A stretch of 64,000 bases of DNA, from positions 52,981 through 116,980 of IMG/VR virus record IMGVR_UViG_3300018875_000003. One strand, 5' to 3'. This DNA is from a virus. Each line of letters opens with the position of its first letter. Position 1 is the stretch's first letter. This document shows, in pieces, positions 1,906 through 63,817 of the stretch. Below the pieces are notes generated by a model. It made no database searches. It was not told the origin of the DNA and was given only the letters and a program-made list of their open reading frames with translations. A program made the position numbers and the translations under genes.

Positions 1906-2211
1906 TTACCTCTCTATTCTGTATAACTGCTCGTATAATTCTAACGGACGCAGTAGAACGGACTGGAATCTCTGCATGATTCTCCCCTTGTATACTTCCA
2001 TACATTTTCCCGTGTGAAGCTCAAGGTCGTTGAAGCAGTAGACCAGCTTTTCTCCTGTAGTAGCTTTACTGCATCTGATCTCAAATCTGCCATTTTCACT
2101 CAACGCAACTTCGCCTGGCTGAATGTAGTGGATCGTATCCGCGAGGTGCATCGATCGCTTTTGCCTGTCGTATTCCCTATTTTTTTCTGAATAGGCCTTC
2201 ATCAATTCCAT
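1906..2211 (-). CDS. hypothetical protein
   Basis: Operon packing; starts MELMKAY. Confidence 0.65.
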   Translation of the reverse strand: MELMKAYSEKNREYDRQKRSMHLADTIHYIQPGEVALSENGRFEIRCSKATTGEKLVYCFNDLELHTGKCMEVYKGRIMQRFQSVLLRPLELYEQLYRIER

Positions 2212-2576
2212 TAGGCACCTGCCCTCTTGATGGTGCGCGGCTTACGCTTGGCACGGCAGCTGCTACATTGTTCGTAAGGCCCATCGTTCGGTGTGCCGCA
2301 GGCTACGCATTTCCCTGCTTCCAGGCGGCGTCTACGCTTGTCTGCCTGGTAGTGCTTCATACAGAAGCCTTTCGACTTATGCGGCAGCCCGCAGCCTTCT
2401 ACGGTGCATACGATGTATTCGTGTATCGGTCTTCCTGTGGAAGCCAGTGCAATGCTCGCATCGTTATGCCGCATGTATCGTCTGTAATGCTTCCAGCAGT
2501 ATCCTCTGGCCACGACTCTCGAATCGCAGTCGTCCATCTTGCAGATCGGGTTGATTGCCGGCTTTTCCTTTTTCAT
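2211..2576 (-). CDS. Cys/His-rich zinc-binding phage protein
   Basis: Two C..xxC...arG.C.kHY repeats plus a CxxC..CxxC ribbon. Confidence 0.65.
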   Translation of the reverse strand: MKKEKPAINPICKMDDCDSRVVARGYCWKHYRRYMRHNDASIALASTGRPIHEYIVCTVEGCGLPHKSKGFCMKHYQADKRRRRLEAGKCVACGTPNDGPYEQCSSCRAKRKPRTIKRAGA

Positions 2577-2783: not shown

Positions 2784-2812
2784 ATTGTAACGCGTTACAA
2801 AGTAGTTGACAA
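2784..2812 (-). promoter_or_regulatory. sigA promoter of the leftward operon with overlapping operator
   Basis: TTGTCA-17 nt-TACAAT on the minus strand; perfect palindrome at 2786-2799. Confidence 0.7.
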
Positions 2813-2981: not shown

Positions 2982-3524
2982 ATGACTACACAAGCATTCA
3001 GCAAGAAAGGTCTTAACATTCTTCAAGGAGCAAGCATCCAAGGCGCACGCTTACTGGGTCAAACAGTACGTGGCATGGATAAGGTAGCTGCTGTGGTTGC
3101 CCCTGTATTGGGTACGGCATGGAGCGTTATTAAGAAGGTAGGCATCGCTGTATACGATATGGTACGTGATGACATCGTTCAGTTGGCAGGCTTTGTACGT
3201 GAGCACAAATGGCAGACAGGTGTAACAGTAGCCTCTGCTGTGGTAGGTGGCATGGCTACCTCCACTATGGTAGGGGCTTCTATACTGGCTGCTATCCTGG
3301 CTATGACTACCATTGTCACTGTACACTACCTGATTGCGAAGCGTAAGAAGCAAGCTATGGACTGGCGTACAACCATTGCAGCAGCGCTTCTTTCTGGAGC
3401 ATGGGCGTTTACTATTCCATTCGCTGTATTCACCCTGCTTGCAACGCTTATCTTTGGTGCATTCTTCGTATTCAAAGGTATGCTGCTTGTATTCGTACAA
3501 GTAGCTGCCCTGTTCGTGATCTAA
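2982..3524 (+). CDS. membrane protein
   Basis: RBS AAGGAG; several hydrophobic segments in the C-terminal half. Confidence 0.75.
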   Translation: MTTQAFSKKGLNILQGASIQGARLLGQTVRGMDKVAAVVAPVLGTAWSVIKKVGIAVYDMVRDDIVQLAGFVREHKWQTGVTVASAVVGGMATSTMVGASILAAILAMTTIVTVHYLIAKRKKQAMDWRTTIAAALLSGAWAFTIPFAVFTLLATLIFGAFFVFKGMLLVFVQVAALFVI

Positions 3525-3532
3525 TAGGTCAT

Positions 3533-3853
3533 GGACATGGCATGGCATAGGTATATAGGGAGTACACGATAACGGTGGATGATCCCCTCTATAGGCTATG
3601 CCCTCTATCTATGTCCTGCATGGTGACATAGGTAGCAGTACTGTATCATGCTATGCCTTGTATGTGGGCATATGGGCGTGTAGGTGCGCTTACTCATATA
3701 CACCCCCTGCATAGTACGTATTGGTTAAGGGTCAGCCGCCCCCATACGTAGTGTGCAGGGGTTTTCTTTTATTTACTTATAGCTCCCTGTATAGGTGGCC
3801 TATATAGACCCCCTCTATATGGCACCCCCTATATAGGGAGCTGTATGTAAGTA
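3533..3853. other. block of consecutive long imperfect inverted repeats
   Basis: Hairpins at ~3533-3616, ~3704-3761 (followed by a T-run) and ~3774-3853 (AGCTCCCTGTATAGG / CCTATATAGGGAGCT). Confidence 0.6.
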
Positions 3854-3882
3854 CAGCAAATACACTACTGGAGGTTTTCTGT

Positions 3883-4056
3883 ATGACAAAGCAACTCTTA
3901 TTAAGCAAAGGTGAACACCTGGGCTTCTGCCCAATGAAAGGCGATCTGTATTCGGTAGAATCGGGCCTTTCTATTTTCGGTAAGCCGCAATACCGCATTT
4001 ATTCCCTGAAAGGAGATTCCATCAGTGAACTCATCTCATTCCAAGTCATCCGCTAA
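3883..4056 (+). CDS. small hypothetical protein (57 aa)
   Basis: GGAGG RBS, ATG at 3883, open to TAA at 4056. Confidence 0.6.
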   Translation: MTKQLLLSKGEHLGFCPMKGDLYSVESGLSIFGKPQYRIYSLKGDSISELISFQVIR

Positions 4057-4126
4057 TCTGTCGTCCCGTCTGTCGTCCGCCGCTCTGTCCAACCAAACTA
4101 AAACTAACCAAAAGGGGTTTTCCACA

Positions 4127-7100
4127 ATGACAACTACTAACAACAACAAACAAGCTCAAATCAACAAGCAACTGGCTCAAGTTAATCGTCTGTTCAACCA
4201 AGCTGTAAAAGGCAACAAAGTGAAAGCTGAAATGTCCGAACTCAAGTCTGCTTCTGTAATCCTCGATGCGATCGCTACATTCCCAGGACTGGGCGTGAAA
4301 ACGAAGAACTATGAAGCGATCACAGCAGCTATGGCAGAAGGACACAGCCTGCGCAGCATCATGCTTAATCCGGAGCTGACCGGCGTAGCGAAGAACCAAT
4401 ACCGTTACTTCCGTGCATTCATGGATGCTAAAGGTGACGACATCCCTGAGATGGTTATGGCTCCGACTCGTAAACGTGTACGTACTGTATCGGTCGATCT
4501 GCTGAAGCACTCCCGCAACGAAGCTGGTGAAGTGGTGCTCAACGCGGAGGTTAACTTCCAATCTCAGTCTCAGCTGGCTGATGCGTTTGGCTCCCTTGCT
4601 GCCGACGACAAGAGCGATCTGTACTTGGATATGGCTCACGTTGTTTACATCGACCTCAACATCGCTGATCAAGAGAATCAGGAATTGAAAGACTTGCAGG
4701 TCGAGGTTGTACGCAACGGATTCTACTACAGTGTGGATGGCGTTACACACAAAGCCAACTTCTTCATTCAGACAGCATCCCAGGCTCGTCAGCTGCAAGG
4801 TATCTACATTGCCGAAGACTTCATGACGATCCCGCAAGCATTCAAGAAGCTGGGTCATGACTTCCTCGCTTACTGCAAACTGAGCAAAGATGGCATCTAT
4901 ACACTTGACATCACGAAGTATCTGAAACGTCCAGGTCTGTCTGGTACAAGCTCGGTATCTTCGAAAGCAATCACATTCCCGAATGCTCGTATCAGCAAGC
5001 TGGCTAATATGACTACTGGTGAATACCTGGTTGAATCCGATCGTCACACGATGGCGGTTATCGAGGATCGCTTTGCAAAGATCACCAATGGCACATTCAA
5101 AGCATTCTACAACAACCGTGTGGTAACTGTGTCTGCTGTTGATGGTGTATTCACCGCTCAATGGAAAGATGGCCGTCTGACTAAACAAGAAGTGCTGCCT
5201 ATGAACTACCTGAAGCTGGGTGTAGGCGATGGCTTGGTTCTGGCATCCGAGTCGATCTACTGGGCACTCAAAGCCGAGCATGGCAATGACTCTGACGCAT
5301 GGCAAGTACGTATCACCCCATTCGTTAAAGGTCTGATGGTATTCGTCCCTGGCCTGCGCAAGTATTATGATGCAGACATCGTTGCATTCAAATCCGCTGT
5401 GAAAGGTGACTTCCGCCTGATCGCTGACGAAGAAGGACGCTTGGACTTTAACATCGAGCTGCGTATTGCTCGCTTTGCTAAACGTCCAGGTAAGAAAGCG
5501 GAGTATGTAGAGCTGCCGTATCAGTTCGCTCACGTATCCAGCATCACTGCAGAGCAAATGATCAATGTAGCTGCTCCACGTCTGGAGGAAGCAAGAAACG
5601 TACTGTCCAACCCTGCACTGATCCAGAAGTATACTGGCGTGGCTCACCTCGAAGACCTGAGCAAGCTGACGACTGCGGAAGCTGAGTTTATGCGTGATCG
5701 TTCCCTTGTATCCGTATTTGCTAACTTCATGCACTATGCCCCATTCACGTATGAGGATGCTTACATGCAAACACGCGCTCTGCAACTGATGGGACAGCAA
5801 GTAGACAAATGGGTTGCTGGTACAATCCCTGTAGAAGGCGAGTATCGCTTCATGGTTCAGGATCCGTATGCTCTGCTGCAAGCTGTGGCTGACGAAGATG
5901 GTGATATGATTGTTCCCGCTTCCGTTGGTCTGCGTCCGCATCAAACATTCATGACTGCACGCGATAACAAACACTTTGTGACTGGACCGGTTGCTTCCTT
6001 CCGTAACCCAGCGATCGCTAAAGGTGAAGGCCGCGTACTGAAAGGTGCTGCTCCGGAGAACTATGTAACCGCATCTGCGAAAGGCGCATTCAACTCGGTC
6101 TGCATCATGAGCTGCCACGATCTGGACACGTTCGCTGAAGGCGGCGCGGATAACGATGGTGACGAAACATTCGTAACGCAAGTGCCTGAGATCGTAAACA
6201 GCATCATGGGCAAAGATGGCGAATCCAAGTTCCTGGCTATGCTTGACCTGCATGTAGGCAAAGATGGTGAGTGGGCTTCCGGTTGCCCGTTCCCTATGGA
6301 ATCCGATGAGAAGCTGACATTCGGTGCAGCATGCGTGGATCACGATGGACAATTCAAAGTGAAGTTCACTGCTGATCAATACGATGATGCTTTCATCCAA
6401 GCTGTGCATGAGCTGAGTAAAGAGTATGTCATCCGCACGCTGAACCCGAACAAGATCGGACAGCAAACAAACATCGCTACACGTCTGGCGGATGCTGTGC
6501 GTAAGGTTGGCTATATGTATGCTGAGGGTGTAGACGAGTTCGGTCAAGCTGTCGATCGTACCGAAGCAGAGAAACAAGATCTGCTGCATGAGATTGTACG
6601 CATGGAAGAAATGATCGATCTGGTTCGTCTGACACAAGGATGGGAGATTGACCGTGCGAAGCATGGCGGTGCATACGAAGAAGCACTGGCTGCCGAGCTT
6701 AACTTCATCAACAACCCACCGAAGTATGCTGGCTTCCAGGAGAATCCGAAAGCGAAACGCGTATGGATCAAGCAAGCATGGTTGTCTCACCACAAAGGCA
6801 CTGAAGGTGGAATCGATACAGGTTCTGTAATGAGCCGCGTACACAACCACATGAAAGCATTCGTACAGGAGAATGTAATCGACAAGTCTGAGGAAATCAA
6901 GAACGATGTCGAGAACAACAACATCATCCATGTACTGAGAAGCGAATATGCTATCGATGCTAACAAGTATGAGGCTTTGGCTGCTGTGATCCGCTCGATC
7001 CGTGCATCCTACACTGCCGACCTGATGAATGCCCGCAATAAGAATGCAGAGTTCAACAAGCTGGCTGAAATCAAATACAACGGCAACGACCACGCTATTC

Positions 7101-7687
7101 GTATGGCGAAAGCTAAGATCGAACGTATCTATAGCGAAGATTGCGATGCGATCACATTCAAGCACCAGGCTGCACTCGCTGCACTGGAATTGTCTTACTC
7201 TGCTACAGATATCGGCTATGTATCCTATATGGTGACATATACGGAGCGTGGTAAAGATGGCAACCGCTCGATCAGCTTCCCTTGGGTTGTGGCTAAGAAA
7301 CAATTCCTGGAGCTGTGCGCGAAGATTGCTAATCGCGAGATCGTGAAGAATCCTTATCTGGTTCCCGCTTCTGAAATCAAAGCAAACTTCCGTATTGCAG
7401 AAGATCCACGCAGCACAGAAGGCAAACACTATGATGGTATGAAGATGGCTGAGGTTATCAAGCAAGCTGGTTCAATCGAGGTTATGTATACGCTGAACGA
7501 GGTAACTGGTGTGTATGGTTACGTGGCATTCGTGCCTGTAGGCAGCAGACTGGTATATGTCGGAGATTTCTATCAGGATCAGGTTGCATTCATGACCGGA
7601 GCTACCCACTTCGAACTGAATGTATCCAATGCAGAAGCAAAAGGACAAGCCATGACCCTGACAGTCTCCAGCGTAGGTCGTAAATAA
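4127..7687 (+). CDS. single-subunit two-barrel RNA polymerase (YonO / eukaryotic RdRP-like family)
   Basis: Ordered motifs GDGLVLAS, WQVRITPFVKG, FRNPAIAKGE and catalytic GGADNDGD (6140-6163); RBS AAAGGGG before ATG 4127. Confidence 0.85.
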   Translation: MTTTNNNKQAQINKQLAQVNRLFNQAVKGNKVKAEMSELKSASVILDAIATFPGLGVKTKNYEAITAAMAEGHSLRSIMLNPELTGVAKNQYRYFRAFMDAKGDDIPEMVMAPTRKRVRTVSVDLLKHSRNEAGEVVLNAEVNFQSQSQLADAFGSLAADDKSDLYLDMAHVVYIDLNIADQENQELKDLQVEVVRNGFYYSVDGVTHKANFFIQTASQARQLQGIYIAEDFMTIPQAFKKLGHDFLAYCKLSKDGIYTLDITKYLKRPGLSGTSSVSSKAITFPNARISKLANMTTGEYLVESDRHTMAVIEDRFAKITNGTFKAFYNNRVVTVSAVDGVFTAQWKDGRLTKQEVLPMNYLKLGVGDGLVLASESIYWALKAEHGNDSDAWQVRITPFVKGLMVFVPGLRKYYDADIVAFKSAVKGDFRLIADEEGRLDFNIELRIARFAKRPGKKAEYVELPYQFAHVSSITAEQMINVAAPRLEEARNVLSNPALIQKYTGVAHLEDLSKLTTAEAEFMRDRSLVSVFANFMHYAPFTYEDAYMQTRALQLMGQQVDKWVAGTIPVEGEYRFMVQDPYALLQAVADEDGDMIVPASVGLRPHQTFMTARDNKHFVTGPVASFRNPAIAKGEGRVLKGAAPENYVTASAKGAFNSVCIMSCHDLDTFAEGGADNDGDETFVTQVPEIVNSIMGKDGESKFLAMLDLHVGKDGEWASGCPFPMESDEKLTFGAACVDHDGQFKVKFTADQYDDAFIQAVHELSKEYVIRTLNPNKIGQQTNIATRLADAVRKVGYMYAEGVDEFGQAVDRTEAEKQDLLHEIVRMEEMIDLVRLTQGWEIDRAKHGGAYEEALAAELNFINNPPKYAGFQENPKAKRVWIKQAWLSHHKGTEGGIDTGSVMSRVHNHMKAFVQENVIDKSEEIKNDVENNNIIHVLRSEYAIDANKYEALAAVIRSIRASYTADLMNARNKNAEFNKLAEIKYNGNDHAIRMAKAKIERIYSEDCDAITFKHQAALAALELSYSATDIGYVSYMVTYTERGKDGNRSISFPWVVAKKQFLELCAKIANREIVKNPYLVPASEIKANFRIAEDPRSTEGKHYDGMKMAEVIKQAGSIEVMYTLNEVTGVYGYVAFVPVGSRLVYVGDFYQDQVAFMTGATHFELNVSNAEAKGQAMTLTVSSVGRK

Positions 7688-7710
7688 CACGAAGCACTCA
7701 TGAGATTTAC

Positions 7711-7743
7711 TGCAGTCGGTGTGTTCTCAGCACATCGACTGCA
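7711..7743 (+). terminator. strong hairpin after the RNAP gene (weak U-tract)
   Basis: TGCAGTCGGTGTGT / GCACATCGACTGCA. Confidence 0.4.
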
Positions 7744-7752
7744 CCCTTATTA

Positions 7753-8085
7753 TAGCACACCCTTCGGGTAGGTGCTAATGCTATCGACAGACGCCTGCAT
7801 GCTGCCCTGTGACGCCCTGCTCCTCTCGCATGACGAATCCTTCGACCGACAAGAAGGAAGCGGCAGACGAGACGACAGGCGGCTTATAGGACGCGTTCTT
7901 ATGCAGCGGCTTATATATAGGCAAACTTACGGCAACTCAGCTCGACGGCTGAATCATACGATTATTGCGACCGGTGTGTGAGGGAGCTGCTTCGCACCAC
8001 GATCGTTGCTGTTATTCGTAAGCTGAAATATAGCCTGTTTTCCTATATAGTCGATGGCATCATCACCTACCCGAAGGGTGTGCTA
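7753..8085 (+). ncRNA. candidate ~330-nt structured RNA or ssDNA element closed by a 36-bp inverted repeat
   Basis: 7753-7774 is the exact reverse complement of 8064-8085 and pairing extends imperfectly to 36 bp; further internal stems. Confidence 0.45.
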
Positions 8086-8133
8086 TTCCTGGGCGTATGC
8101 GTATTTTGCGTATGTTGCTATATGTGTGTGATC

Positions 8134-8195
8134 GATATCATATATCGTATTTCATACGTTGTATGCTCATTTCATATTTCGTATATCATATGCTA
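8134..8195. repeat. heptad array 1 (TATWTCR and inverse), parS-like
   Basis: GATATCA TATATCG TATTTCA TACGTTG ... TATTTCG TATATCA. Confidence 0.6.
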
Positions 8196-8297
8196 TCGAA
8201 AGAGGTGAACCCACATCCGAAAATTTCTTGCTACTTGAGTATGATTTCATATAGCCTATATAGGTATCTTATGATGAAATAGGATGCTGTAGACGAA

Positions 8298-8326
8298 GGT
8301 CGCTAACGCTCCTGTGGCTTTGTGAA
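8298..8326 (+). promoter_or_regulatory. CTRACG-N7/8-GGCTWNNYGAW motif copy 1
   Basis: GGTCG CTAACG CTCCTGT GGCTT TG TGAA. Confidence 0.6.
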
Positions 8327-8412
8327 TGTGTGTCTTATGAGTATGGCTATATGCTAATCGGACATACGCGAATGACGATAGATATACTATGACTATATAG
8401 GGAGATGTATAT

Positions 8413-8709
8413 ATGAGTTATCCTGATTGGCAACCTAAGTTTGATTTCAATGACGATCTTGTTTGTATAGAGAGATACTTCGATAATGAGAATGTCGATG
8501 ATCTGGCTCCATCTATAGAGATGGTTGTTGGTAAAGGTATTACTCTAACGTTGATTCCTTCAGCTTTATTCCCTGCATATAGGGTGAACAATGCACAAGG
8601 TGAATGTATTGGTCATATTAGTCGTGAGACATCTCTTTATCTTGTTACTCTATATCCTCGTGCTATGAGTGATGGACAGATTAAGTATCTTCGTTCATTG
8701 CGTAAATAG
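8413..8709 (+). CDS. hypothetical protein
   Basis: RBS GGGAGA; 98-aa ORF. Confidence 0.65.
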   Translation: MSYPDWQPKFDFNDDLVCIERYFDNENVDDLAPSIEMVVGKGITLTLIPSALFPAYRVNNAQGECIGHISRETSLYLVTLYPRAMSDGQIKYLRSLRK

Positions 8710-8857
8710 CATATATGATGATGGCTATATAGGTTGTTTATGCTATATAGACTTTATATCGTTAGATATATGATTAATAGGATGGCGCTTTGCCTTTTTT
8801 TCTTTTGCCAATCCTTTGGATCGGCGCTAAAACACTATGCAATGGGGGTTCCATCAC

Positions 8858-9085
8858 ATGGAAGCATTCATCAGGTTCTACGCTAAAGTCAATCCAGGAC
8901 ACTGGGCTTTGGATATTCGTCATTCGAGTATAGTCGATTGGTCTATCACCGTTGGCTATAAGGCATCGCATCCGAAGTATGGCGAAAGCATTATTCATGT
9001 ACAGGGTTGGGATGTCGATCTGGCCTTTGCGAAAGCACAGGTTCAGCTGAAAGAATGGTTGACCGAACATAACGGCGGCTATTGA
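8858..9085 (+). CDS. hypothetical protein
   Basis: RBS GGGGGT before ATG 8858. Confidence 0.6.
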   Translation: MEAFIRFYAKVNPGHWALDIRHSSIVDWSITVGYKASHPKYGESIIHVQGWDVDLAFAKAQVQLKEWLTEHNGGY

Positions 9086-9110
9086 TTAACTATATAGGAG
9101 GATTCATCAT

Positions 9111-9395
9111 ATGAAGAAAACGATCGCCATGCGCCAGTCATCCGTATATGGTGCTATATCCAAGATGATTAATGCCATGTCTGGAGATTCTATTCAGTTT
9201 CAAACGGCAGTGAAGATGTATAAGCGATTTGCTACAGGCTTTGTTCTAAGAGAGAACGAGGTGGCTTTCTTTCTCCGCGAGCTGGTTGATGCTGGTCACT
9301 TGCACCTGGAGGTAAACGATCAAGGCAAAGAGATGTTGTCGCTCACTCCAGCGGGAGACGAATACCATACCATAAGCTTTGGTGATGACGAATGA
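9111..9395 (+). CDS. hypothetical protein, possible winged-helix
   Basis: RBS AGGAGG; LRELVDAGHL...LSLTPAG. Confidence 0.6.
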   Translation: MKKTIAMRQSSVYGAISKMINAMSGDSIQFQTAVKMYKRFATGFVLRENEVAFFLRELVDAGHLHLEVNDQGKEMLSLTPAGDEYHTISFGDDE

Positions 9396-9640
9396 ACGTT
9401 TACGATATTGGCATGCACTATGATGATATACTGCTGCGTATGAAGGATGTGCGCAGCTATATTCCTGTGCTTATGTCTGGATATAAGGCTCCGTATGATA
9501 TCGAGGACATTATCCGGGAGTATGCTGCTAATCCGATGTATGATATGTCTTTGGATGAGTTCCGCAGCCGGTTGAATCTATTATCGTCTATAGTGCGATT
9601 AGATTACGATAAGCTTGCGGCTTCATATGGGATGTCGTAA
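9392..9640 (+). CDS. hypothetical protein
   Basis: ATGA overlap with the upstream gene. Confidence 0.6.
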   Translation: MNVYDIGMHYDDILLRMKDVRSYIPVLMSGYKAPYDIEDIIREYAANPMYDMSLDEFRSRLNLLSSIVRLDYDKLAASYGMS

Positions 9641-9781
9641 TCGTAACGCGTTTCATTTTTTCTTTTGTCTATGTTGATCCAGCTGAATTGCCTCCTACTT
9701 TTTTCCGCACTGGTTGGCAGGCAGGATGGATGGCAGCAAAAGTGATTGATGTTGATTGATTCCAGAAAGGAGGTTCCCGCA

Positions 9782-9952
9782 ATGAGCACAAACTTTAAAG
9801 CTATATCGTTTGCTGAGTTTATGACGGATGTAATGGGTATAAGCGATAAGCAATACTATGAGATGGATGCCGATCAGCAGCGTAAGATTTTTGACCAGTG
9901 GCATTCGCTCACTCAGCTACAGTTTGATTTGTGGTCTTCTAAAGTTAATTGA
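9782..9952 (+). CDS. small hypothetical protein
   Basis: RBS AAAGGAGG. Confidence 0.6.
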   Translation: MSTNFKAISFAEFMTDVMGISDKQYYEMDADQQRKIFDQWHSLTQLQFDLWSSKVN

Positions 9953-9985
9953 TTGGCGTTACATTACGTATAGTGAGGTGGTATC

Positions 9986-10120
9986 ATGATTAAATCACTG
10001 GTTTCAATCATTCGAGGTGACAATGAGGACATAAGCACTGTCCACCTGTTCGCTTGGCATATTATTGGCGCCATGCTTGCTTCTGCTGTTGCACTTGCTG
10101 TCGGTCATACGTTTATATAG
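9986..10120 (+). CDS. small membrane peptide (44 aa)
   Basis: RBS GAGGTG; one hydrophobic segment. Confidence 0.5.
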   Translation: MIKSLVSIIRGDNEDISTVHLFAWHIIGAMLASAVALAVGHTFI

Positions 10121-10188
10121 CCGCCTGATGAGTCCCTGGCGTGGGACGAAACCAGAATGTCGTGAGATATGCTGGTCGCGGATTGCCG
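10121..10188 (+). ncRNA. hammerhead ribozyme, type I
   Basis: CCGC-CTGATGA-GTCCC/GGGAC-GAAA-CCAG...CTGG-TC|GCGG; all core nucleotides and three stems present. Confidence 0.92.
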
Positions 10189-10212
10189 CAGCTTATACAA
10201 GGAGGAATGTTT

Positions 10213-10548
10213 ATGCCATTAAAGCTATATACAGCTCAGTATGCTTATCGTGGTCCGGATCGTGTGGATACCACAGTGAAAAGCAGTGATGGTATCTTTG
10301 CGCCGACCTGGGATATTGTCATGGGTGTGAAGAAAGGTCGGATCACCGAGCAGCAGTATACGGATGAGTATTATCGTATGATGCGCGATTCATATACCCA
10401 GAACTATGACAAATGGATGGAGCTTCTATCCAGAGATGAGGCGACGATCGTATGCTTCTGTGCGTATGGCCAGTTCTGTCATCGTCATCTACTGAAAGAC
10501 ATGCTTGTTAAATGTGGCGCCACTTATATGGGCGAACGTGGAAGGTGA
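10213..10548 (+). CDS. DUF488-like protein
   Basis: FAPTWD...Y..EY...IVCFC...FCHRHLL. Confidence 0.65.
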   Translation: MPLKLYTAQYAYRGPDRVDTTVKSSDGIFAPTWDIVMGVKKGRITEQQYTDEYYRMMRDSYTQNYDKWMELLSRDEATIVCFCAYGQFCHRHLLKDMLVKCGATYMGERGR

Positions 10549-10552
10549 TATC

Positions 10553-10744
10553 ATGGAAATTACACACGAATATGTATCTGGAGAGATCAATAAGCTACTG
10601 TCGAAGTATGACTTCCCTATTTATGCGCTGCAGGATGTATCCAAGCGGCTGGGTGATTCTGATGACCCAAACTATGCAGCGCAGCAGCTTCGATATTTGC
10701 AGAACCTTGTTGGAGCTGGCTATGCTAAAATGAAGTCTAAATAA
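10553..10744 (+). CDS. hypothetical protein
   Basis: RBS AAGGTGA; starts MEITHEY. Confidence 0.6.
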   Translation: MEITHEYVSGEINKLLSKYDFPIYALQDVSKRLGDSDDPNYAAQQLRYLQNLVGAGYAKMKSK

Positions 10745-10761
10745 TCTTATCGGAGGTATAT

Positions 10762-11067
10762 ATGACTAAACAATCTAAAGCATTGAATGCACTCTGCGTT
10801 TTGTATCCTCATGCGCGCCCTGCTGCAGGTGAAGGATACAATATGATCCGTGCTGAGCGTTATGACAACCCTGTTGACTTTCAGAATCTTGTTACCTGTC
10901 TTCTTGCTGCGTTCCCCTCTTCCCTATTCGATCATGCAGATTATGTGGAGGTTAGATTCTCCGCCGACACGATCACAGTGTACACTGGCCACTTCCTGGT
11001 TGAGTCTGACGTATATAACGTTCGATTCCTCTATGAAGCTTCGTACCAGACAGACACTGACTCATGA
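10762..11067 (+). CDS. hypothetical protein
   Basis: RBS GGAGGT. Confidence 0.65.
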   Translation: MTKQSKALNALCVLYPHARPAAGEGYNMIRAERYDNPVDFQNLVTCLLAAFPSSLFDHADYVEVRFSADTITVYTGHFLVESDVYNVRFLYEASYQTDTDS

Positions 11068-11077
11068 GGTGTGCTTT

Positions 11078-11347
11078 ATGGAGCTGATGACTTACTATAT
11101 CGATAATGCTTATGTGACGCTGCCTGATATGATCCCTGGTGTCCGATATCAGTTCTTGTATCACCACGACGATCCAGATGCTCGCTATATTGCCGAATAT
11201 ATCGGTCGTGATGATGATAAATGGTATCATCGAATGTTGTTCCGTATTATATGGCGAGATGCTGATATACATCGTGAGCAGATGTCTCTGTTCACGAATA
11301 AAATCACTCATATCAAGCTACATGGTGGTGATGCCGCATGGAACTGA
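11078..11347 (+). CDS. hypothetical protein
   Basis: RBS GAGGTG; starts MELMTYY. Confidence 0.65.
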   Translation: MELMTYYIDNAYVTLPDMIPGVRYQFLYHHDDPDARYIAEYIGRDDDKWYHRMLFRIIWRDADIHREQMSLFTNKITHIKLHGGDAAWN

Positions 11348-11586
11348 TCAGTCGCTATTGTTTAACCAGAGGTATCGGCGGCGTAACTATCAAAGATCGA
11401 AGCTTTGGTTACGGAGATTATTTGCGCATCAGGCATGCGGATCTGACAGGCAGCTATGAAACGACAGGTACTCTTGCTCCCTCTATCGATGATCAATATA
11501 TCATTCTTATAGATGATGATGACGATGATATTCATATATGGCGTGGTGATATTAATTATGTTGAGGATCTGTGCAGCCTTTGCTGA
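11338..11586 (+). CDS. hypothetical protein
   Basis: RBS GGTGGTGA; starts MELISRY. Confidence 0.65.
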   Translation: MELISRYCLTRGIGGVTIKDRSFGYGDYLRIRHADLTGSYETTGTLAPSIDDQYIILIDDDDDDIHIWRGDINYVEDLCSLC

Positions 11587-11671
11587 ACAGGTTCTCTTTT
11601 TCTTTTGTCTACCCTTCGGGCAGACGCGATCGGCGGATGATGCTTCATGTATTCGAATGCAGCATACGAAT

Positions 11672-11700
11672 GGTCGCTAACGCTCCATCGGCTTGACGAT
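11672..11700 (+). promoter_or_regulatory. motif copy 2
   Basis: GGTCG CTAACG CTCCATC GGCTT GA CGAT. Confidence 0.6.
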
Positions 11701-11728
11701 GACTATTATCCTATTGGAGGTTTTATAT

Positions 11729-12121
11729 ATGACAACTCAACAAACGCAGGTAACTGAAGAACTCGTTGCAATGATGCTGGATGTCGCTCTGACTCATTAT
11801 CCGAATGCTCGTAAGGTATCCAGAAGCTATCTGCTGGATCAGCTGGAAGAGCGTGACGATTCCGGTCCGGATGAAACGAAAGAACAAGCGGTGCAGCGCA
11901 TCTTCGATTTCCTCGATAGCGAGTATCGTTATGACTTCAATGCTGCTGGCGATCTGATCTCTCCTCCACTCGTTAAACGCTCTCCAGCCGGCTATTATAT
12001 TGGACGCGACTATTATGATTTCGAATTAGGAAGCGAGATGCACTATGAACGTGAATCTGGCTACATGACAGAAGAAGCAGCCAATCGTGCATTTGCATCA
12101 GGTGTATGGTGGAGGAGTTAA
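11729..12121 (+). CDS. hypothetical phage protein
   Basis: RBS GGAGG; SPAGYYIG...RESGY. Confidence 0.65.
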   Translation: MTTQQTQVTEELVAMMLDVALTHYPNARKVSRSYLLDQLEERDDSGPDETKEQAVQRIFDFLDSEYRYDFNAAGDLISPPLVKRSPAGYYIGRDYYDFELGSEMHYERESGYMTEEAANRAFASGVWWRS

Positions 12122-12184
12122 TCCTCCTCCTTCACTTCCTTTAACACTTATCTCACTACATAAACTATTTAGGAGCTGATATTA

Positions 12185-12718
12185 ATGATTAAGTCTATTA
12201 AGAAGTATGTTTCTCAGGTGAAGATGGTTGCTCAGGGTATGATCGATATGCAGAATCCTTTCCGCACCAGCAAGATTGTGGAGATGAACCATTTTGGTGT
12301 ACAATGCAAAATGCTACATGACCCTGCCCTACTTCATAGCAAAGGATATATGGTTGCCGGCGCTATGCGTGTGATTATGGGCGACGTCGTTGAAGATATG
12401 ATTGTCGTTGATGATCACTTCTTTGAAATGGATGCTGCCCACCAGCTGGCTATATATTTTCATGAGTTTGGCCACATTCACCTGGAGCATTTGGAACGTC
12501 TCGCTTCAGGAGGAAAATACGCCAACATGAAGAATCTGTTTAAGCGTTCGGCTGCTGCTATTCATGGTGTGCAAGACATCGAACTTGAAGCGGACCAGTA
12601 TGCCGCAAGCAAGGTTGGCCCTGTCATCCTCTCTTCTGCCCTCGAAGCTGTTTCTGCCGTTGTCGGCCCTAAAAATAAGGAGCTGCAAAGACGTATTCGC
12701 ATTCTCCGCAACCAGTGA
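12185..12718 (+). CDS. zinc metallopeptidase (M48-like)
   Basis: HEFGH and ELEADQYA motifs. Confidence 0.7.
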   Translation: MIKSIKKYVSQVKMVAQGMIDMQNPFRTSKIVEMNHFGVQCKMLHDPALLHSKGYMVAGAMRVIMGDVVEDMIVVDDHFFEMDAAHQLAIYFHEFGHIHLEHLERLASGGKYANMKNLFKRSAAAIHGVQDIELEADQYAASKVGPVILSSALEAVSAVVGPKNKELQRRIRILRNQ

Positions 12719-12727
12719 GGTGTCCGT

Positions 12728-12970
12728 ATGGATAAGATCATTCAATCCCTGCACAATGATGCTCCCCTCCATTGCCATAAAACGATTGACTACAGCCAGG
12801 ATGAGCATGCTGATCAGGTTGATGATGCTGTCTATTGTGCCGGCGCCTTGGGATATATGGTAAAAGCGAAAGATATCAATCTCCCTATTCGTCTTGGCAT
12901 AATGTTTGATTTATTCCGTCCGGACGAGCTTCAGGATCTGGATGATCTCATCGATCCGAAAGAGGAGTGA
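12728..12970 (+). CDS. hypothetical protein
   Basis: RBS GAGGTG. Confidence 0.6.
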   Translation: MDKIIQSLHNDAPLHCHKTIDYSQDEHADQVDDAVYCAGALGYMVKAKDINLPIRLGIMFDLFRPDELQDLDDLIDPKEE

Positions 12971-12976
12971 TTTTAA

Positions 12977-13396
12977 TTGGAGATTCGCAATGGTTCCCCT
13001 GTTATTGGCCACCGTGTTGAGGTATACGTCAATCTGAATAAGAATGGGTTGTTCAGTATCCTTGACCGGCAGCCAAAGAGCCCCACGTATAACAAAGTTT
13101 TAGCGTATGCCGAGCGCGTTACATTACGAGAAGCCCGCTCCCGTATCAGTCAAAGCAAGTATGATTCTATTCAGAACAAGAAGCAGCGTGCTGTGTGTGC
13201 CATGTTTACTGGAACCCTGGTTGCTATCGATGAAGCAAAGCCTGCCGGACTTGATGTTGAGGTCCACTATAATCCTTACCGCGCCCGTGAATTTCACACG
13301 AATGACGGTCATGTCATTGAAGAAGCAGATTTGATTCATTTCGAGGATAAGCTGGGCTGGGTTTCCGATCCGGAAGCACCCATGCTGCTATTTTAA
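12977..13396 (+). CDS. hypothetical phage protein
   Basis: RBS GAGGAG; VYVNLNK...FS...YNPY. Confidence 0.65.
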   Translation: MEIRNGSPVIGHRVEVYVNLNKNGLFSILDRQPKSPTYNKVLAYAERVTLREARSRISQSKYDSIQNKKQRAVCAMFTGTLVAIDEAKPAGLDVEVHYNPYRAREFHTNDGHVIEEADLIHFEDKLGWVSDPEAPMLLF

Positions 13397-13414
13397 TTTC
13401 GGAGGTTATTTATT

Positions 13415-13648
13415 ATGCAAACAGCACTACACGAACAGGTTCGCCATGAAGAGATGGTTCCTGGTCATATGTATGAAATCGAAGATGATCGCGGCGGCAT
13501 CATCCAGGGTAATTATGATCAGCGTTCAGATTCTATGATTACGCTCAAAAATACGATGTATATTATGCCAAGCGGCTATCACATGCCTTATCCTTCTTGG
13601 TGTGTATCTATCCATCGCATTGTCAGTTGTAAGAAATTTCATTTTTAG
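13415..13648 (+). CDS. hypothetical protein
   Basis: RBS GGAGG. Confidence 0.6.
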   Translation: MQTALHEQVRHEEMVPGHMYEIEDDRGGIIQGNYDQRSDSMITLKNTMYIMPSGYHMPYPSWCVSIHRIVSCKKFHF

Positions 13649-13659
13649 GAGGATGCCAT

Positions 13660-13977
13660 ATGACTCAGCGTAAAGGCTTCAATGATTTCTTCACGTTCAC
13701 CCGAGATGATAAGTTTATTCAGAATAAGACCTATCTCATTCATCTGATGCAGCTGGTCGAGTCCATGGATGAAAACTGCGATATGTCCGTTACTTCCACC
13801 GGTAGGATCCTGATGCTCTTTTTCGAAGAAGATGGCATGTCTGCACACATCGATGTTAATTTGGACCACATCCTCACCTATATTGATCGGTTACTCAAGC
13901 TGCAAGCTCACACTGATTTCTTCACTACACAAGTTGACCGCGATAAGATATACGAATGCTTCACCATTAACGAATGA
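13660..13977 (+). CDS. hypothetical protein
   Basis: RBS AGGAGG. Confidence 0.6.
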   Translation: MTQRKGFNDFFTFTRDDKFIQNKTYLIHLMQLVESMDENCDMSVTSTGRILMLFFEEDGMSAHIDVNLDHILTYIDRLLKLQAHTDFFTTQVDRDKIYECFTINE

Positions 13978-14005
13978 AGGCTACCAATCGGTGGCCTTCT
14001 TTTTT
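13976..14005 (+). terminator. intrinsic terminator
   Basis: GAAGGCTACC / GGTGGCCTTC followed by a T-run. Confidence 0.75.
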
Positions 14006-14032
14006 ATTACACACACTATTGGAGGGTTTCCC

Positions 14033-14284
14033 ATGAAAATTAGATACGCCGTATTATTCTTTGTTGTCCTGTTCGCGATTGTTGCATTCAAGAACTATGA
14101 GCCAGAGCCGCGCTTTGTTGAATATGTAGTTGGATCCGGCGACACCCTGTGGTCTATCGCAAATCAAAGCGACATCGATACCGACAAACGTGCAATCATC
14201 GCATATATGATGGACAAGTCTCATATCAAGCAAGCTGCTGATCTGCAGCCGGGCATGGTTATTCAGGTGCCGATGCTCAAATGA
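14033..14284 (+). CDS. membrane-anchored LysM protein, YneA-like
   Basis: N-terminal TM helix plus YVVGSGDTLWSIA...LQPGMVIQVP. Confidence 0.75.
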   Translation: MKIRYAVLFFVVLFAIVAFKNYEPEPRFVEYVVGSGDTLWSIANQSDIDTDKRAIIAYMMDKSHIKQAADLQPGMVIQVPMLK

Positions 14285-14418
14285 ATACAGCTCATGTGAT
14301 TTTCATCCTTTGCCTGGTTGCAGCCACATTTCTTGAGCATTACATAGATAGCAGCACTGATTAATATCTCGCTTTGTATGGCGTTACGTTTATGTTAAAA
14401 TCGGGGAGCCACGCTCCC

Positions 14419-14476
14419 TATTCTGTCTGCGGTTATCCAACCGTACTGATGAGCTGTCGTGCAGCGAAACAGAATA
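14419..14476 (+). ncRNA. hammerhead ribozyme, type III
   Basis: TATTCTGTC|TGCGGTT/AACCGTA-CTGATGA-GCTG/CAGC-GAA-ACAGAATA. Confidence 0.95.
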
Positions 14477-14494
14477 AAACTGGAGGTGTTTCTT

Positions 14495-14983
14495 ATGACA
14501 CAACTCGAACAAACTAATCGTGTATTTGATGCTGCTGATTTCCGTGAAGGCATGCAGGAAGAATATGAATTTCAATATACTAATTCCAAGATGTCCGTTT
14601 CTACTGCGTTTCAATTGTTGAATGAACAAGGATGGGAAGTCCATGACGGAGACGTGATCGATGGACTCAAGCGTGCTTTGGCGGATGCCCTTCACTCTGT
14701 CATCATGGAGCATATGCTGGATGCCTACCAAGTTGTCGATTTCGACCTTTTGTATAGTGACAGCTTTCTTGGCAATCCAGGCGGATACACCGATGAGTAT
14801 GGTGTCTTCTGGGTCGAAGCCGAATCGATGTGCCATTACAAAATCGATCATAAGGCTCGCAAATTCACATCCGGTCGCATCAAGCTCAGTGCATCTATCT
14901 ATAACGATGACGCGAAGCTGAATGAAATGCTCGGTGCAATCCGGAAGCATGTTGATGATCAAGTCAAAGCACTGAATCTTTAA
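14495..14983 (+). CDS. hypothetical protein
   Basis: RBS GGAGGTG. Confidence 0.7.
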   Translation: MTQLEQTNRVFDAADFREGMQEEYEFQYTNSKMSVSTAFQLLNEQGWEVHDGDVIDGLKRALADALHSVIMEHMLDAYQVVDFDLLYSDSFLGNPGGYTDEYGVFWVEAESMCHYKIDHKARKFTSGRIKLSASIYNDDAKLNEMLGAIRKHVDDQVKALNL

Positions 14984-15032
14984 TCCTCGGCGCTCATTAC
15001 GGGCGCCCATTCCCCTATGGAGGTTGATTATC

Positions 15033-15320
15033 ATGAAGAAAATCGCATCGTTTATTTATACTCCATTCGAGACTGTGCCTGTGTTCGAAGCGACAGGCAC
15101 TCTTCTCGATACACATATGTCTGATGGCGTGCTGCTGGCACTGTTCGATATCCCAGGTGTTTCGAATTGTTATCCGGTGTTCTTTGAGCAGCCGGAAATG
15201 ATCCACTACATATCCACGTCCTGCCCTGCGGGTACAACCCTTCTTCTTTCCGGCAGGAACTACACCGACAATGAGTGCCCTCACTTGATTGCGAGCAGAT
15301 GCTTTACTCTATCGATGTAG
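15033..15320 (+). CDS. hypothetical protein
   Basis: RBS GGAGG. Confidence 0.6.
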   Translation: MKKIASFIYTPFETVPVFEATGTLLDTHMSDGVLLALFDIPGVSNCYPVFFEQPEMIHYISTSCPAGTTLLLSGRNYTDNECPHLIASRCFTLSM

Positions 15321-15321
15321 C

Positions 15322-15350
15322 GCAGCCTACGGCTGCAGTGGCTTTATGAT
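15322..15350 (+). promoter_or_regulatory. motif copy 3 (hairpin subtype)
   Basis: GCAGC CTACG GCTGCAGT GGCTT TA TGAT. Confidence 0.55.
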
Positions 15351-15369
15351 ATTATATGGGAGGCGCATT

Positions 15370-15468
15370 ATGCTTAAAGAACGTTTGGCATTTGTCGGAT
15401 TGGCCCTTGGTTCAATCGCCTTGTTTATCGCCGTTGTCTTCGGCGTTATGCTTATATTGGCATCGTAG
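15370..15468 (+). CDS. small hydrophobic peptide (32 aa)
   Basis: RBS GGGAGG; single TM segment. Confidence 0.55.
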   Translation: MLKERLAFVGLALGSIALFIAVVFGVMLILAS

Positions 15469-15476
15469 GAGGTTCT

Positions 15477-15668
15477 ATGGATTTTTTGTTTTCAACCTTG
15501 GCATTCATCTTGTTTGAATCCATCGGCGTGTGGGGGCTTATCATTTGCCTGCACGATCTGCGCAATCCTTCGATTGGATTCTGGTATAGATTCAAATATA
15601 CAGGTGTCGTTATTCTTCTGATGCTTGTTATCTTCGCTTTTTACTTGTTAGATATTCATACATCATAG
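15477..15668 (+). CDS. small membrane protein
   Basis: RBS AGGAGG; two hydrophobic segments. Confidence 0.6.
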   Translation: MDFLFSTLAFILFESIGVWGLIICLHDLRNPSIGFWYRFKYTGVVILLMLVIFAFYLLDIHTS

Positions 15669-15735
15669 GAAGTATTTCATATTTCATACGTTATACGATA
15701 TATTTCCTACGATGTATGATGTATTTCGTATTTCA
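15666..15735. repeat. heptad array 2, parS-like
   Basis: In-phase TAGGAAG TATTTCA TATTTCA TACGTTA TACGATA TATTTCC TACGATG TATGATG TATTTCG TATTTCA. Confidence 0.75.
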
Positions 15736-15756
15736 TAGGATTGGAGGACATATCAT

Positions 15757-15993
15757 ATGAATTTAATCGTAGCTTACCAGAAGTCCATCACTCCCCTCAA
15801 ACCTGATGTATGGGAAGTCGGCAAGCGATATGAGATCACTGACAACCATGGCAATCTAGTCTATGGTGATTTTTACGCTGCTCATGGTCGCCAGCTGTGC
15901 TTCACTAATTGCTTTTGCGGAGATGACTACGAACCTGGAGAGTACTTTTATTTCCCGGATGAAATCAAGGAGGCTGTTGTCGTTGACGATTAA
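15757..15993 (+). CDS. hypothetical protein
   Basis: RBS GGAGG; starts MNLIVAY. Confidence 0.6.
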   Translation: MNLIVAYQKSITPLKPDVWEVGKRYEITDNHGNLVYGDFYAAHGRQLCFTNCFCGDDYEPGEYFYFPDEIKEAVVVDD

Positions 15994-16432
15994 GATGAAT
16001 TATAACTTTCAGTTTTACAAGGAGATTAAGCTCCAGCTGATCCGCCGTGACTATACCGGCTACGATGCCAAGCGTTTTACGCTGAACGGCACCAATCAGA
16101 ATGTATGGATTCCAAATAAGCATCTGCTGGAAGACGGCACGATCAAGCAGGATGAGAACATTGATTATGTTTTCAGACGTGCCATCCGTCAGCTGGAGCT
16201 TGCTGGATACACCGGCCCGATTATCGGCATCAAGCGCACTACCAAGGTCGATCCGATCATCTATGTCCGGCAGCTTACTTGGGATGAGCAGCAGGCGCTC
16301 CTCTCCCCTCTCGAAGCCAAGCTTAAAGAAGAAGGCTTATCGAAACGCAAAATCTATAGGGCGCTTGCTGATGCCAGAGACAGCAAGATTAGTGATATCC
16401 AAGACCAATTCCCAAAGGAGAATGAATTATGA
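15983..16432 (+). CDS. hypothetical protein
   Basis: RBS AAGGAGG before TTG 15983 (ATG 15995 is an alternative start). Confidence 0.6.
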   Translation: MTIKMNYNFQFYKEIKLQLIRRDYTGYDAKRFTLNGTNQNVWIPNKHLLEDGTIKQDENIDYVFRRAIRQLELAGYTGPIIGIKRTTKVDPIIYVRQLTWDEQQALLSPLEAKLKEEGLSKRKIYRALADARDSKISDIQDQFPKENEL

Positions 16433-16872
16433 CTGGACACAATGACTATTTCCGGTTGCGAAAAGTATTCTTAAAGAACTGCACCACCGATCTGCTGGGC
16501 GCCAGCAAGGAAACGATCGATGACATGATTGCTTATCTTCAGGCAACGCGTGAAATGACGCCGGATGATACTTCCCTTGAAGAGATCATCAAACGATTCT
16601 ATTGGCGGCACCAGGAGGAATACGGCAGCGGCCATATCAATTCGCGGTCGATCACTCTCATTCCCGGGCATCATCTCTATGATGATTTCGTTCTGGCTGC
16701 CGGCGATCTGCTGCCAGACGGGTTTAACTCTCCGGCGCAGCGCGAAGAACGTATCATTCAATTCATCGTTAAATATACACCTGCCTATAGCGAGTTCAAT
16801 CTGATCGGAACCGAGAACGACATCATCATGAAGCAAAGAGTCGATCACGTTCTCTGCCGGTTCAAAGTTTAA
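16429..16872 (+). CDS. hypothetical protein
   Basis: RBS AAGGAG; ATGA overlap. Confidence 0.65.
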   Translation: MTGHNDYFRLRKVFLKNCTTDLLGASKETIDDMIAYLQATREMTPDDTSLEEIIKRFYWRHQEEYGSGHINSRSITLIPGHHLYDDFVLAAGDLLPDGFNSPAQREERIIQFIVKYTPAYSEFNLIGTENDIIMKQRVDHVLCRFKV

Positions 16873-16888
16873 TCCAATACGAAATCTC

Positions 16889-16920: not shown

Positions 16921-16942
16921 GTATGCAAAGGAGGAAATGAGT

Positions 16943-17089: not shown

Positions 17090-17100
17090 GAGGATATGTC

Positions 17101-18272: not shown

Positions 18273-18301
18273 TTGTAATGCGTTACATTCTACATTAGAA
18301 T
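18273..18301 (+). promoter_or_regulatory. sigA promoter with operator
   Basis: TTGTAA-17 nt-TAGAAT; TGTAATGCGTTACA at 18274-18287. Confidence 0.6.
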
Positions 18302-20149: not shown

Positions 20150-20160
20150 TGTCCCGCTTA

Positions 20161-30006: not shown

Positions 30007-30078
30007 TGTAACGTGTTACAATATTTATAGTTTTTTATTTTGTAACGCGTTGCAAAACATAGGGTAAAATGCTATGAT
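30007..30078 (+). promoter_or_regulatory. sigA promoter with two operators
   Basis: TTGCAA-17 nt-TATGAT with extended TG; palindromes at 30007-30020 and 30041-30054. Confidence 0.7.
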
Positions 30079-35446: not shown

Positions 35447-35731
35447 ACGATAAGCAATTAGCTGAAATAGTGATGTTCAGCTAGGGCTGGTCAGAAACCT
35501 ATTACATTTTGGGTATACTGTCCGGCCTTTTTTATGCCTTAATCCTTCAAAAATTCGCGCAATCGTCAGCTTTTCGGAGTAATATGCCTCTTCCGCTATT
35601 GCCGCATACTTAAAATGCGGCGCATTCTATCTTTTCGCTTTGTAACGTGTTATAATATCGTTAACAAGTGGAGTAGTGTGCGTTGCTTTGTGCCAAAAGG
35701 CAATGCAAAATTGCGAGGGGGATGAACAATC

Positions 35732-38893: not shown

Positions 38894-39050
38894 GTTCGAA
38901 TTAAGATATAGGAAACTGTATGAATGCAACGCCGTACAGTTTCCAATGTAATAATTCTTATTGCTCAAAAATACTTTGGATTCTGCTTGTTTTTCCCTAT
39001 GTTATAGTTTATATTAAATGTAACGCATTACAATGTGAGAAGGTGTCCTT

Positions 39051-53611: not shown

Positions 53612-53714
53612 ATAGCAGCATAATGTAAGACGTTACAATTTTCTGCCTGTAACGTCTTTTATTATGCCTAAAACATGATATAATAGCTTATGCTACAGAA
53701 TGGAGGCCCATATT

Positions 53715-63773: not shown

Positions 63774-63817
63774 TATAATGTAACGCGTTGCAAAATCGTG
63801 AAATAATAGCGTATACT
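63774..63817 (+). promoter_or_regulatory. sigA promoter with operator
   Basis: TGTAACGCGTTGCA at 63779-63792 overlapping TTGCAA-18 nt-TATACT. Confidence 0.6.

Follow-up and report, generated by a model that had tools for sequence, protein, structure and literature searches.

The 64,000-nucleotide stretch of viral DNA analysed here (referred to as the window; bases 52981-116980 of the 116,980-base IMG/VR contig IMGVR_UViG_3300018875_000003, rated by CheckV as 59% complete) carries near the head of its rightward arm an open reading frame (ORF) of 1186 amino acids (aa) which almost certainly codes for a single-chain RNA polymerase of the two-barrel type. On balance, the observations are best explained by the assumption that this polymerase is a gp99-type enzyme of a Bacillales phage of about 213 kb, acting as an early, non-virion, DNA-dependent transcriptase of the middle and probably also of the late operons, an explanation that is favoured with some confidence. 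The polymerase is a further member of an already known type, named after gp99 (ORF099, ABS83659.1) of the Bacillus thuringiensis jumbo phage 0305phi8-36, and the idea of an early polymerase with promoters of its own has been in print for this relative since 2007 (Hardies et al., PMC2147016).

An earlier reading of this DNA from its letters and ORFs (the sequence-only reading) had claimed four motifs in a given order, and these are indeed found in the translation as G-V-G-D368-G-L-V-L-A-S, Q393-V-R395-I-T-P-F-V-K401-G, R626-N-P628-A-I-A-K-G-E634 and G-G-A-D675-N-D677-G-D679. Eight residues have been listed as common to every two-barrel RNA polymerase, comprising an aspartate and two basic residues in the beta-like barrel as well as R-x-P and D-x-D-x-D in the beta'-like barrel (Ruprich-Robert and Thuriaux, PMC2919709). 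In an alignment of 50 family sequences, P628, D675, D677 and D679 are kept in all 50 and D368, R395, K401 and R626 in 49, and judged by this conservation the four-motif series is not a product of chance. In addition, the protein matches the Pfam family RdRP (RNA-dependent RNA polymerase, PF05183) over residues 525-790 with 25.6 bits at a gathering cut-off of 23.8, a phmmer search over 1.84 billion representatives retrieved 101 relatives at E <= 1e-3 and 36 at E <= 1e-30, mostly 1050-1460 aa in length, and in the protein atlas 25 of 30 named matches fall into PF05183-bearing clusters. A confident AlphaFold2 model computed with the family alignment as input (predicted local distance difference test score, pLDDT, 90.3; predicted template modelling score, pTM, 0.83) shows strand-rich blocks at residues 362-421 and 567-684, around both motif sets, and the prediction of two double-psi beta-barrels in one chain rests on the sequence signatures together with this secondary structure. 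No match to the polymerase was obtained by megablast or tblastn in 50,697 phage records, nor by tblastn to an 840-aa member of its family; PHROGs returned 0 families, a single-sequence search of the PDB nothing relevant, and Pfam no match of the polymerase to PF00940, the T7-like palm/fingers domain.

With respect to its closer kinship, the polymerase is of the gp99 type rather than of the YonO type, and sequence comparison makes its likeness to YonO, the enzyme of phage SPbeta, a remote one. The profile of the polymerase family (P0001) scores gp99 at E = 1.4e-26 and YonO at E = 2e-12, and gp99 can be aligned pairwise to the polymerase with 24% identity over 450 aa, from the R-x-P motif through S-I-S-F-P-W-V. 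YonO as taken from the SPbeta record has no pairwise similarity to it (best BLASTP E = 0.85), whereas hhalign relates YonO to the polymerase family with 97% probability (E = 1.1e-10, 205 aligned columns). In a quick FastTree reconstruction (52 sequences, 1038 columns, midpoint-rooted, branch supports not considered) the polymerase lies inside a clade of proteins of 1050-1460 aa, with gp99 basal on a long branch and YonO outside. The assignment to the YonO type made in the sequence-only reading thus survives as a relation at the profile level, but not as close kinship.

Length (1218 aa in gp99) and motif order (R-x-P, DxDGD, Q-G-W-x-I-D-x-A-K-x-G, S-I-S-F-P-W-V) are likewise shared with gp99, the product of which is entered in its record as 'hypothetical DNA-directed RNA polymerase ... 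Pfam05183'. Enzymes of the gp99 type, about 1100-1450 aa long, have a C-terminal helical head ending in S-F-P-W, and their genes stand at the head of an arm of small ORFs and replication genes in a Bacillales phage of roughly 200 kb; the polymerase and its gene agree with this in sequence features as well as in setting. YonO, a single-chain two-barrel enzyme, has in common with the polymerase, for which two barrels are predicted, the single chain and the R-x-P, D-N-D-G-D and R...K-G signature, but with 839 aa it lacks the head and the C-terminal regions, and yonO precedes its own late structural operon on one and the same strand, whereas the polymerase gene faces away from the structural arm. 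It should be mentioned that Iyer et al. (2021, PMC7824862) list gp99 as YonO-like. Other single-chain two-barrel polymerases of phages are gp64 (non-virion) and gp96 (a virion enzyme fused to the tape measure) of the Thermus phage P23-45 and gp66 of phi14:2, which is crAss-like. Based on its terminase, the phage groups with Moorella phage MTATph1 and the Bacillus phages WH1, Edson, KLEB27-3 and 0305phi8-36, and profile searches found no homologue of the polymerase in MTATph1, WH1 and KLEB27-3.

The polymerases of eukaryotic RNA interference, such as RDR2 of Arabidopsis (7roz, 7eu0) and QDE-1 of Neurospora, belong to the same Pfam family. The profile of the polymerase family matches RDR2 (7roz) with E = 1.6e-7 over the catalytic stretch as well as over the C-terminal head as far as S-F-P-W, and QDE-1 (2j7n) weakly, with E = 0.03-0.04. 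Together with PF05183, the hhalign relation to YonO and the eight residues, the match to RDR2 supports the claimed membership of the superfamily that unites RdRPs and YonO. The eukaryotic enzymes differ, however, in that they serve silencing pathways, in which their templates are RNA or single-stranded DNA, and their matches to the polymerase are weak.

An identical polymerase protein is encoded on a contig of 213,157 bases, and the whole genome is therefore probably about 213 kb in size; the host is probably a member of the Bacillales, presumably Paenibacillus, and the element a jumbo phage or phage-plasmid. To the left of the polymerase gene lie minus-strand structural genes including those for portal and terminase, and to its right a run of small ORFs followed by genes for helicases, a UvsX-like recombinase, a clamp-loader-like ATPase and a DnaG-type primase. 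Three or four short plus-strand ORFs (2622-2819, 2806-2985, 2982-3524 and 3883-4056) precede it after the strand switch, in agreement with the claim that it is almost the first gene of its arm. The same arrangement recurs in the relatives, where the gene follows the minus-strand block after one to six short same-strand ORFs in 15 of 15 related loci, and mostly small plus-strand ORFs lie downstream in 11 of 11 loci with enough downstream DNA. Also the gene of gp99 heads a run of small ORFs towards replication genes.

The strong codon bias that had been claimed for the gene is evident from an effective number of codons of 41.1, the third lowest among 27 ORFs of at least 300 codons, the two ORFs with lower values both belonging to the structural arm. 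The bias matches that of the structural genes, with CTG for 60 of 82 leucines, CGT or CGC for 52 of 55 arginines and ATC for 54 of 63 isoleucines, no TTA, no CTA and a single TCA codon. This codon choice is also the reason why an antisense frame of 1139 aa (4046..7465) stays open across the gene.

For gp99, a putative RNA polymerase in the annotation of Hardies et al. (2007, PMC2147016), these authors noted a monocistronic, rapidly expressed transcript and a position adjoining a block of small ORFs resembling host-takeover genes, and they described a 21-bp phage-specific motif marking 'middle' promoters in 0305phi8-36, a phage reported there to encode no sigma factor. Among the genes that P23-45 expresses first is that of its non-virion enzyme, and the two enzymes each have a DNA motif of their own (PMC10770324). 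YonO was identified as the DNA-dependent RNA polymerase of the SPbeta late genes (Forrest et al. 2017, PMC5467207), its promoter being left undefined there, and it alone among the members has proven DNA-dependent transcription specific to the phage; a survey of the literature, covering main texts, found purification of the much shorter YonO and no biochemical study or purification of a gp99-type enzyme.

In view of these data the polymerase is likely to act as a DNA-dependent transcriptase. That it might instead use RNA or single-stranded templates in the manner of QDE-1 and RDR2, giving rise to antisense or double-stranded RNA or to replication primers, is highly improbable: the profile relatives with solved structures are indeed eukaryotic RNA-dependent enzymes that share the head region, the gene heads the replication arm, and ribozyme-cut RNAs are encoded nearby (see below), but the phage has a DnaG-type primase of its own, the single characterised bacterial relative is DNA-dependent (PMC5467207), and an RNA-dependent role would, according to Hardies et al., be unprecedented for a DNA phage (PMC2147016).

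As to the transcription of the polymerase gene itself, two hairpins, at 3704..3775 and 7711..7743, bracket it, and its own promoter must therefore lie in 3775-3882. The first of these hairpins would close the upstream plus-strand ORFs and set the polymerase unit apart. Between the first hairpin and the gene lies an array of four boxes in inverted repeat (3787..3843), in which, as elsewhere before the polymerase gene, no sigma-70-type site was found. Across 3000-22900, sigma-70-type promoters are not enriched (31 found, 37.7 +/- 5.0 expected), and phage-specific motifs are present upstream of genes, in line with the claim of a non-sigA upstream motif. All eight copies of CTATATAG in the contig fall within window 3800-9090, around and just after the polymerase gene; besides the four boxes before the gene, two copies overlap ribosome-binding sites (8393 and 9090). 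A CCTATATAGG site near the strand switch recurs in eight relatives. Two candidates were discarded, namely CTATATAGG as a lineage-wide early promoter, since this 9-mer is not enriched genome-wide in the relatives when compared to the reversed control, and TATAGGGAG, present at 3552, 3830 and 8394, as the start of a T7-like promoter. The latter likeness was judged to be a coincidence because no enzyme with PF00940 was found, the control for this domain being silent too.

The 117-kb contig, about half of the genome, yielded no match to sigma-70 region 2 or to a beta or beta' domain, and only one of ten related genomes matches sigma-70 region 2. Pfam matches among the 20 neighbouring ORFs are restricted to DUF488-N3a, L5 gp82-like, LysM and a borderline zinc finger in 2211-2576(-), with no transcription factor; a cluster look-up yielded no names.

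The best candidate for a recognition element of the polymerase, as far as sequence patterns can tell, is the 14-bp palindrome TGTAAYGCRTTACA, which is at the same time the weakest step of the model. It occurs at 26 sites with at most two mismatches, compared to 1-4 in each of five shuffles, and at 12 sites with at most one mismatch (window 135, 2786, 18274, 30007, 30041, 35641, 39019, 53624 and 63779; contig 20316, 26674 and 44823). Ten of these 12 are intergenic, most of them 20-90 nt before a gene, and the palindrome stands at operon starts on both arms, with nine of the 12 copies in the rightward arm and those at contig 20316 and 44823 in the structural arm. It is kept in all five related genomes tested (19, 7, 2, 2 and 1 sites, versus 0-1 in the reversed control), whose polymerases are 29-81% identical, and it was not found in 0305phi8-36, MTATph1, WH1, KLEB27-3 and SPbeta.

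In 0305phi8-36, too, a phage-specific motif recurs before genes. There, CGTTCGCACG is present in 17 copies within EF583821, 164709-212549, all 17 in gene sense and one of them about 100 nt before gp99. Its flanks pair at 17, 17 and 15 of the 17 sites with 3-4 pair types, in comparison to 1-7 of 17 in shifted controls, and therefore form a hairpin with covariation, whose 6-bp stem carries a TCGC loop and after which TTTGTA follows. The 21-bp 'promoter' described by Hardies et al. (2007) probably has this element as its core. The two phages differ in that the motif of 0305phi8-36 is a directional hairpin, while that of the present phage is a fixed palindrome.

According to the mechanism proposed here, the polymerase would be a non-virion, DNA-dependent transcriptase, synthesised early and abundantly under a promoter in the 3787-3843 array that is unlike sigma-70 sites. 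It would then transcribe the middle operons, which serve replication, and probably also the late ones, which are structural, might recognise the palindrome at the operon starts, and would thereby free the phage from the host RNA polymerase. In this specific form, i.e. as an early-made, middle- and late-acting enzyme that reads the palindrome, the model is put forward tentatively. By analogy, and in its role only, such an enzyme would resemble the RNA polymerase of T7, which is made early and transcribes later gene classes from phage-specific promoters, but which has an unrelated fold (PF00940).

Several observations weigh against this mechanism or limit its force. The contig covers about 55-59% of the genome, and absences in it are therefore weak evidence; this also holds for PF00940, which was found neither in the contig nor in ten related genomes, in a search whose control was equally silent. 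QDE-1 has been reported to have both RNA- and DNA-dependent activity (PMC9508822), and YonO, as outlined above, serves late genes (PMC5467207). The palindrome is symmetric, its flanks are unpaired, it often abuts a TATAAT-like hexamer, and individual copies follow an 11/12 sigma-70-type site (18274) or precede TTGACA (2786). By its sequence, this pattern looks like the operator of a dimeric regulator at promoters of the host polymerase, and symmetry and TATAAT-like neighbours would fit an operator as well as a promoter. A global repressor is also plausible since in Bacillales assemblies, namely those of Alicyclobacillus shizuokensis, Oceanobacillus profundus, Paenibacillus rhizovicinus and Paenibacillus urinalis, relatives of the phage take the form of stand-alone contigs (about 195-230 kb) or 'plasmids', which suggests a phage-plasmid or carrier state for them.

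Moreover, the polymerase gene also adjoins the head of the divergent structural arm, and its position therefore does not separate an early/middle from a late role. Of the T7-like early/middle role assumed in the sequence-only reading, the support from arm-head position, codon bias and the lack of enrichment of sigma-70-type sites stands, but the same position fits a late role equally. It could accordingly be argued that the enzyme is a transcriptase of late genes only, like YonO, which switches on the divergent structural arm while the host RNA polymerase serves the early and replication genes and the palindrome is an operator on sigma-A promoters. The late-only role of YonO (PMC5467207), the terminase and portal genes 9-14 kb to the left of the polymerase gene, the two palindrome copies in the structural arm, the TATAAT-like hexamers flanking many copies and the resemblance of the relatives to phage-plasmids are in line with this scenario. 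It is nevertheless unlikely, as the polymerase gene is on the strand opposite to the structural genes, unlike yonO, the rightward arm holds most of the palindrome copies (9 of the 12 with at most one mismatch), 3000-22900 shows no enrichment of sigma-70-type sites, and a codon bias like that of capsid genes suits an enzyme needed in bulk.

The transcription system of the phage may also not be 'self-contained' by virtue of this polymerase, given a candidate second polymerase in the structural arm. Outside the window, at contig 6207-12977(-), lies the gene of a giant protein of 2256 aa with an N-terminal DEDD-exonuclease-like region, an R-Y-P-T-F-H...A-D-S-D-G-D block and a hydrophobic, glycine-rich tail, homologues of which carry public names such as 'hypothetical', 'RNase H-like' or 'Pol III epsilon-like'. 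PF00623, the beta' domain with N-A-D-F-D-G-D, matches ORFs of about 2260-2320 aa, homologues of the giant protein, in three of ten related genomes (24.5, 19.3 and 13.7 bits), and all of 36 homologues keep seven of the eight signature residues, K1354, K1361, R1788, P1790, D1826, D1828 and D1830. The spacing from R-x-P-T-x-H to D-x-D-G-D is 38 residues, compared to 35 in E. coli beta'. The giant protein is full-length in all nine polymerase-bearing relatives and present also in KLEB27-3 and WH1, and a homologue was not found in 0305phi8-36. On these sequence grounds it may be a virion-type two-barrel RNA polymerase. The tape-measure-fused virion polymerase of P23-45 was discovered via its DFDGD motif (PMC10770324), and the giant protein was likewise spotted via a conserved DxDGD in a huge protein of the structural arm.

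If so, the polymerase could be the second enzyme of a cascade in which the giant virion-type enzyme transcribes a pre-early set including the polymerase gene before the polymerase takes over, for which P23-45 offers a precedent (PMC10770324). Besides the residues, PF00623 matches and co-occurrence just described, the location among structural genes, the tail, the lack of a sigma-70-type promoter before the polymerase gene and the confinement of CTATATAG to its surroundings are consistent with such a cascade. However, hhalign comparisons of the giant protein with the polymerase family, E. coli beta' and E. coli beta were all negative, a sub-profile alignment to beta' reached 0.5 bits, hmmscan found PF00623 at E <= 0.01 in one of nine homologues only, the protein atlas gave no usable match and a PDB profile search only weak PolB-exonuclease-like matches at the N-terminus; the fourth aspartate is kept in just 19 of 36 homologues, and CTATATAGG is not enriched in the relatives. 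The cascade is thus a possibility that falls somewhat short of being probable. Doubtful is its extension to a cascade that would be independent of the host and formed by two single-chain two-barrel enzymes unrelated to each other, in which the virion-delivered giant protein would start at the TATA-box array and the gp99-type enzyme would transcribe the remaining genome from short elements, palindromic or hairpin-forming, TGTAAYGCRTTACA here and the covarying hairpin in 0305phi8-36.

Among the enzymes of prokaryotic viruses, those of the gp99 type are the nearest relatives of the polymerases by which eukaryotes amplify RNA silencing, and their study bears on whether the ancestor of the latter was a promoter-specific DNA transcriptase. 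The lineage is tractable, with 36 strong relatives among the 1.84 billion representatives, elements in assemblies of cultured Paenibacillus, Oceanobacillus and Alicyclobacillus, a well-bracketed gene, and candidate recognition elements conserved across polymerases of 29-81% identity. The giant protein, should it be a true polymerase, would add a new family of virion-type polymerases.

The features are compiled in the table below. The frame of the polymerase gene is a single open one (4025..7687, +), and public gene calls start at GTG 4025, resulting in 1220 aa, a start which the small plus-strand ORF 3883-4056 overlaps; GTG 4025 and ATG 4127 are both candidates for the start.

Features of the polymerase gene, its transcription unit and the palindrome copies (window coordinates; a dot marks features given for neither strand)
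Feature	Position	Strand	Basis or remark
Coding sequence of the single-chain two-barrel polymerase, 1186 aa and stop, from ATG	4127..7687	+	ORF, Pfam, phmmer relatives, alignment, model
Possible 34-codon N-terminal extension from GTG, low-complexity	4025..4126	+	Alternative start
Signature of the beta-like barrel, codons 366-402 (D368, R395, K401)	5222..5332	+	Residues as listed in PMC2919709
Signature of the beta'-like barrel, codons 626-679 (R626-N-P628 ... D675-N-D677-G-D679, metal-binding triad)	6002..6163	+	Alignments
Family-invariant block I-D-R-A-K-H-G-G, codons 841-848 (D842, K845, G847, G848)	6647..6670	+	
End of the helical head region, S-I-S-F-P-W-V, codons 1044-1056	7256..7294	+	Common to gp99 and Arabidopsis RDR2
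Terminator-like hairpin (3704-3761) followed by a T-run	3704..3775	+	-35.7 kcal/mol, z -5.7, 0/200 shuffles as stable
Four C-rich/TATA/G-rich boxes in inverted repeat	3787..3843	.	Sole stretch in which a promoter of the polymerase gene could fit
57-codon ORF with its own Shine-Dalgarno sequence, just before the polymerase ATG	3883..4056	+	No Pfam family
Hairpin with 15-bp stem, without T-run, 24 nt past the polymerase stop	7711..7743	+	-23.5 kcal/mol, z -4.5
Perfect palindrome copy at the head of the rightward arm	2786..2799	.	TTGACA 6 nt later
Palindrome copy, 1 mismatch	18274..18287	.	64 nt before a plus-strand ORF, just past an 11/12 sigma-70-type site
Two palindrome copies, 0 and 1 mismatch	30007..30054	.	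67 and 33 nt before a plus-strand ORF
Palindrome copy, 1 mismatch	35641..35654	.	Intergenic
Palindrome copy, 1 mismatch	39019..39032	.	32 nt before a plus-strand ORF
Palindrome copy, 1 mismatch	53624..53637	.	Intergenic
Palindrome copy, 1 mismatch	63779..63792	.	Intergenic

The small-ORF region downstream of the polymerase gene contains three ribozyme sites on the coding strand, namely a Pistol ribozyme at window 17597-17664(+) with 49.1 bits (threshold 34.5), a type III hammerhead at 14420-14475(+) with 44.2 bits, just below its threshold of 48.5 (E = 2e-6), and a weak hammerhead-like site at 10099-10157(+) with 24.8 bits. With one site above threshold and one hammerhead just below, the ribozymes assumed in the sequence-only reading are thus recovered, downstream of the gene. 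In the same region, the 15-mer GGTCGCTAACGCTCC is repeated in intergenic positions at window ~8300 and ~11670, with a variant at ~22226, and has no match in Rfam at E <= 1. Directly after the weak hammerhead-like site follows an ORF of 135 aa (window 10141-10548, +) belonging to the 'active DUF488-N3' subclade PF22751 (E = 9e-10).

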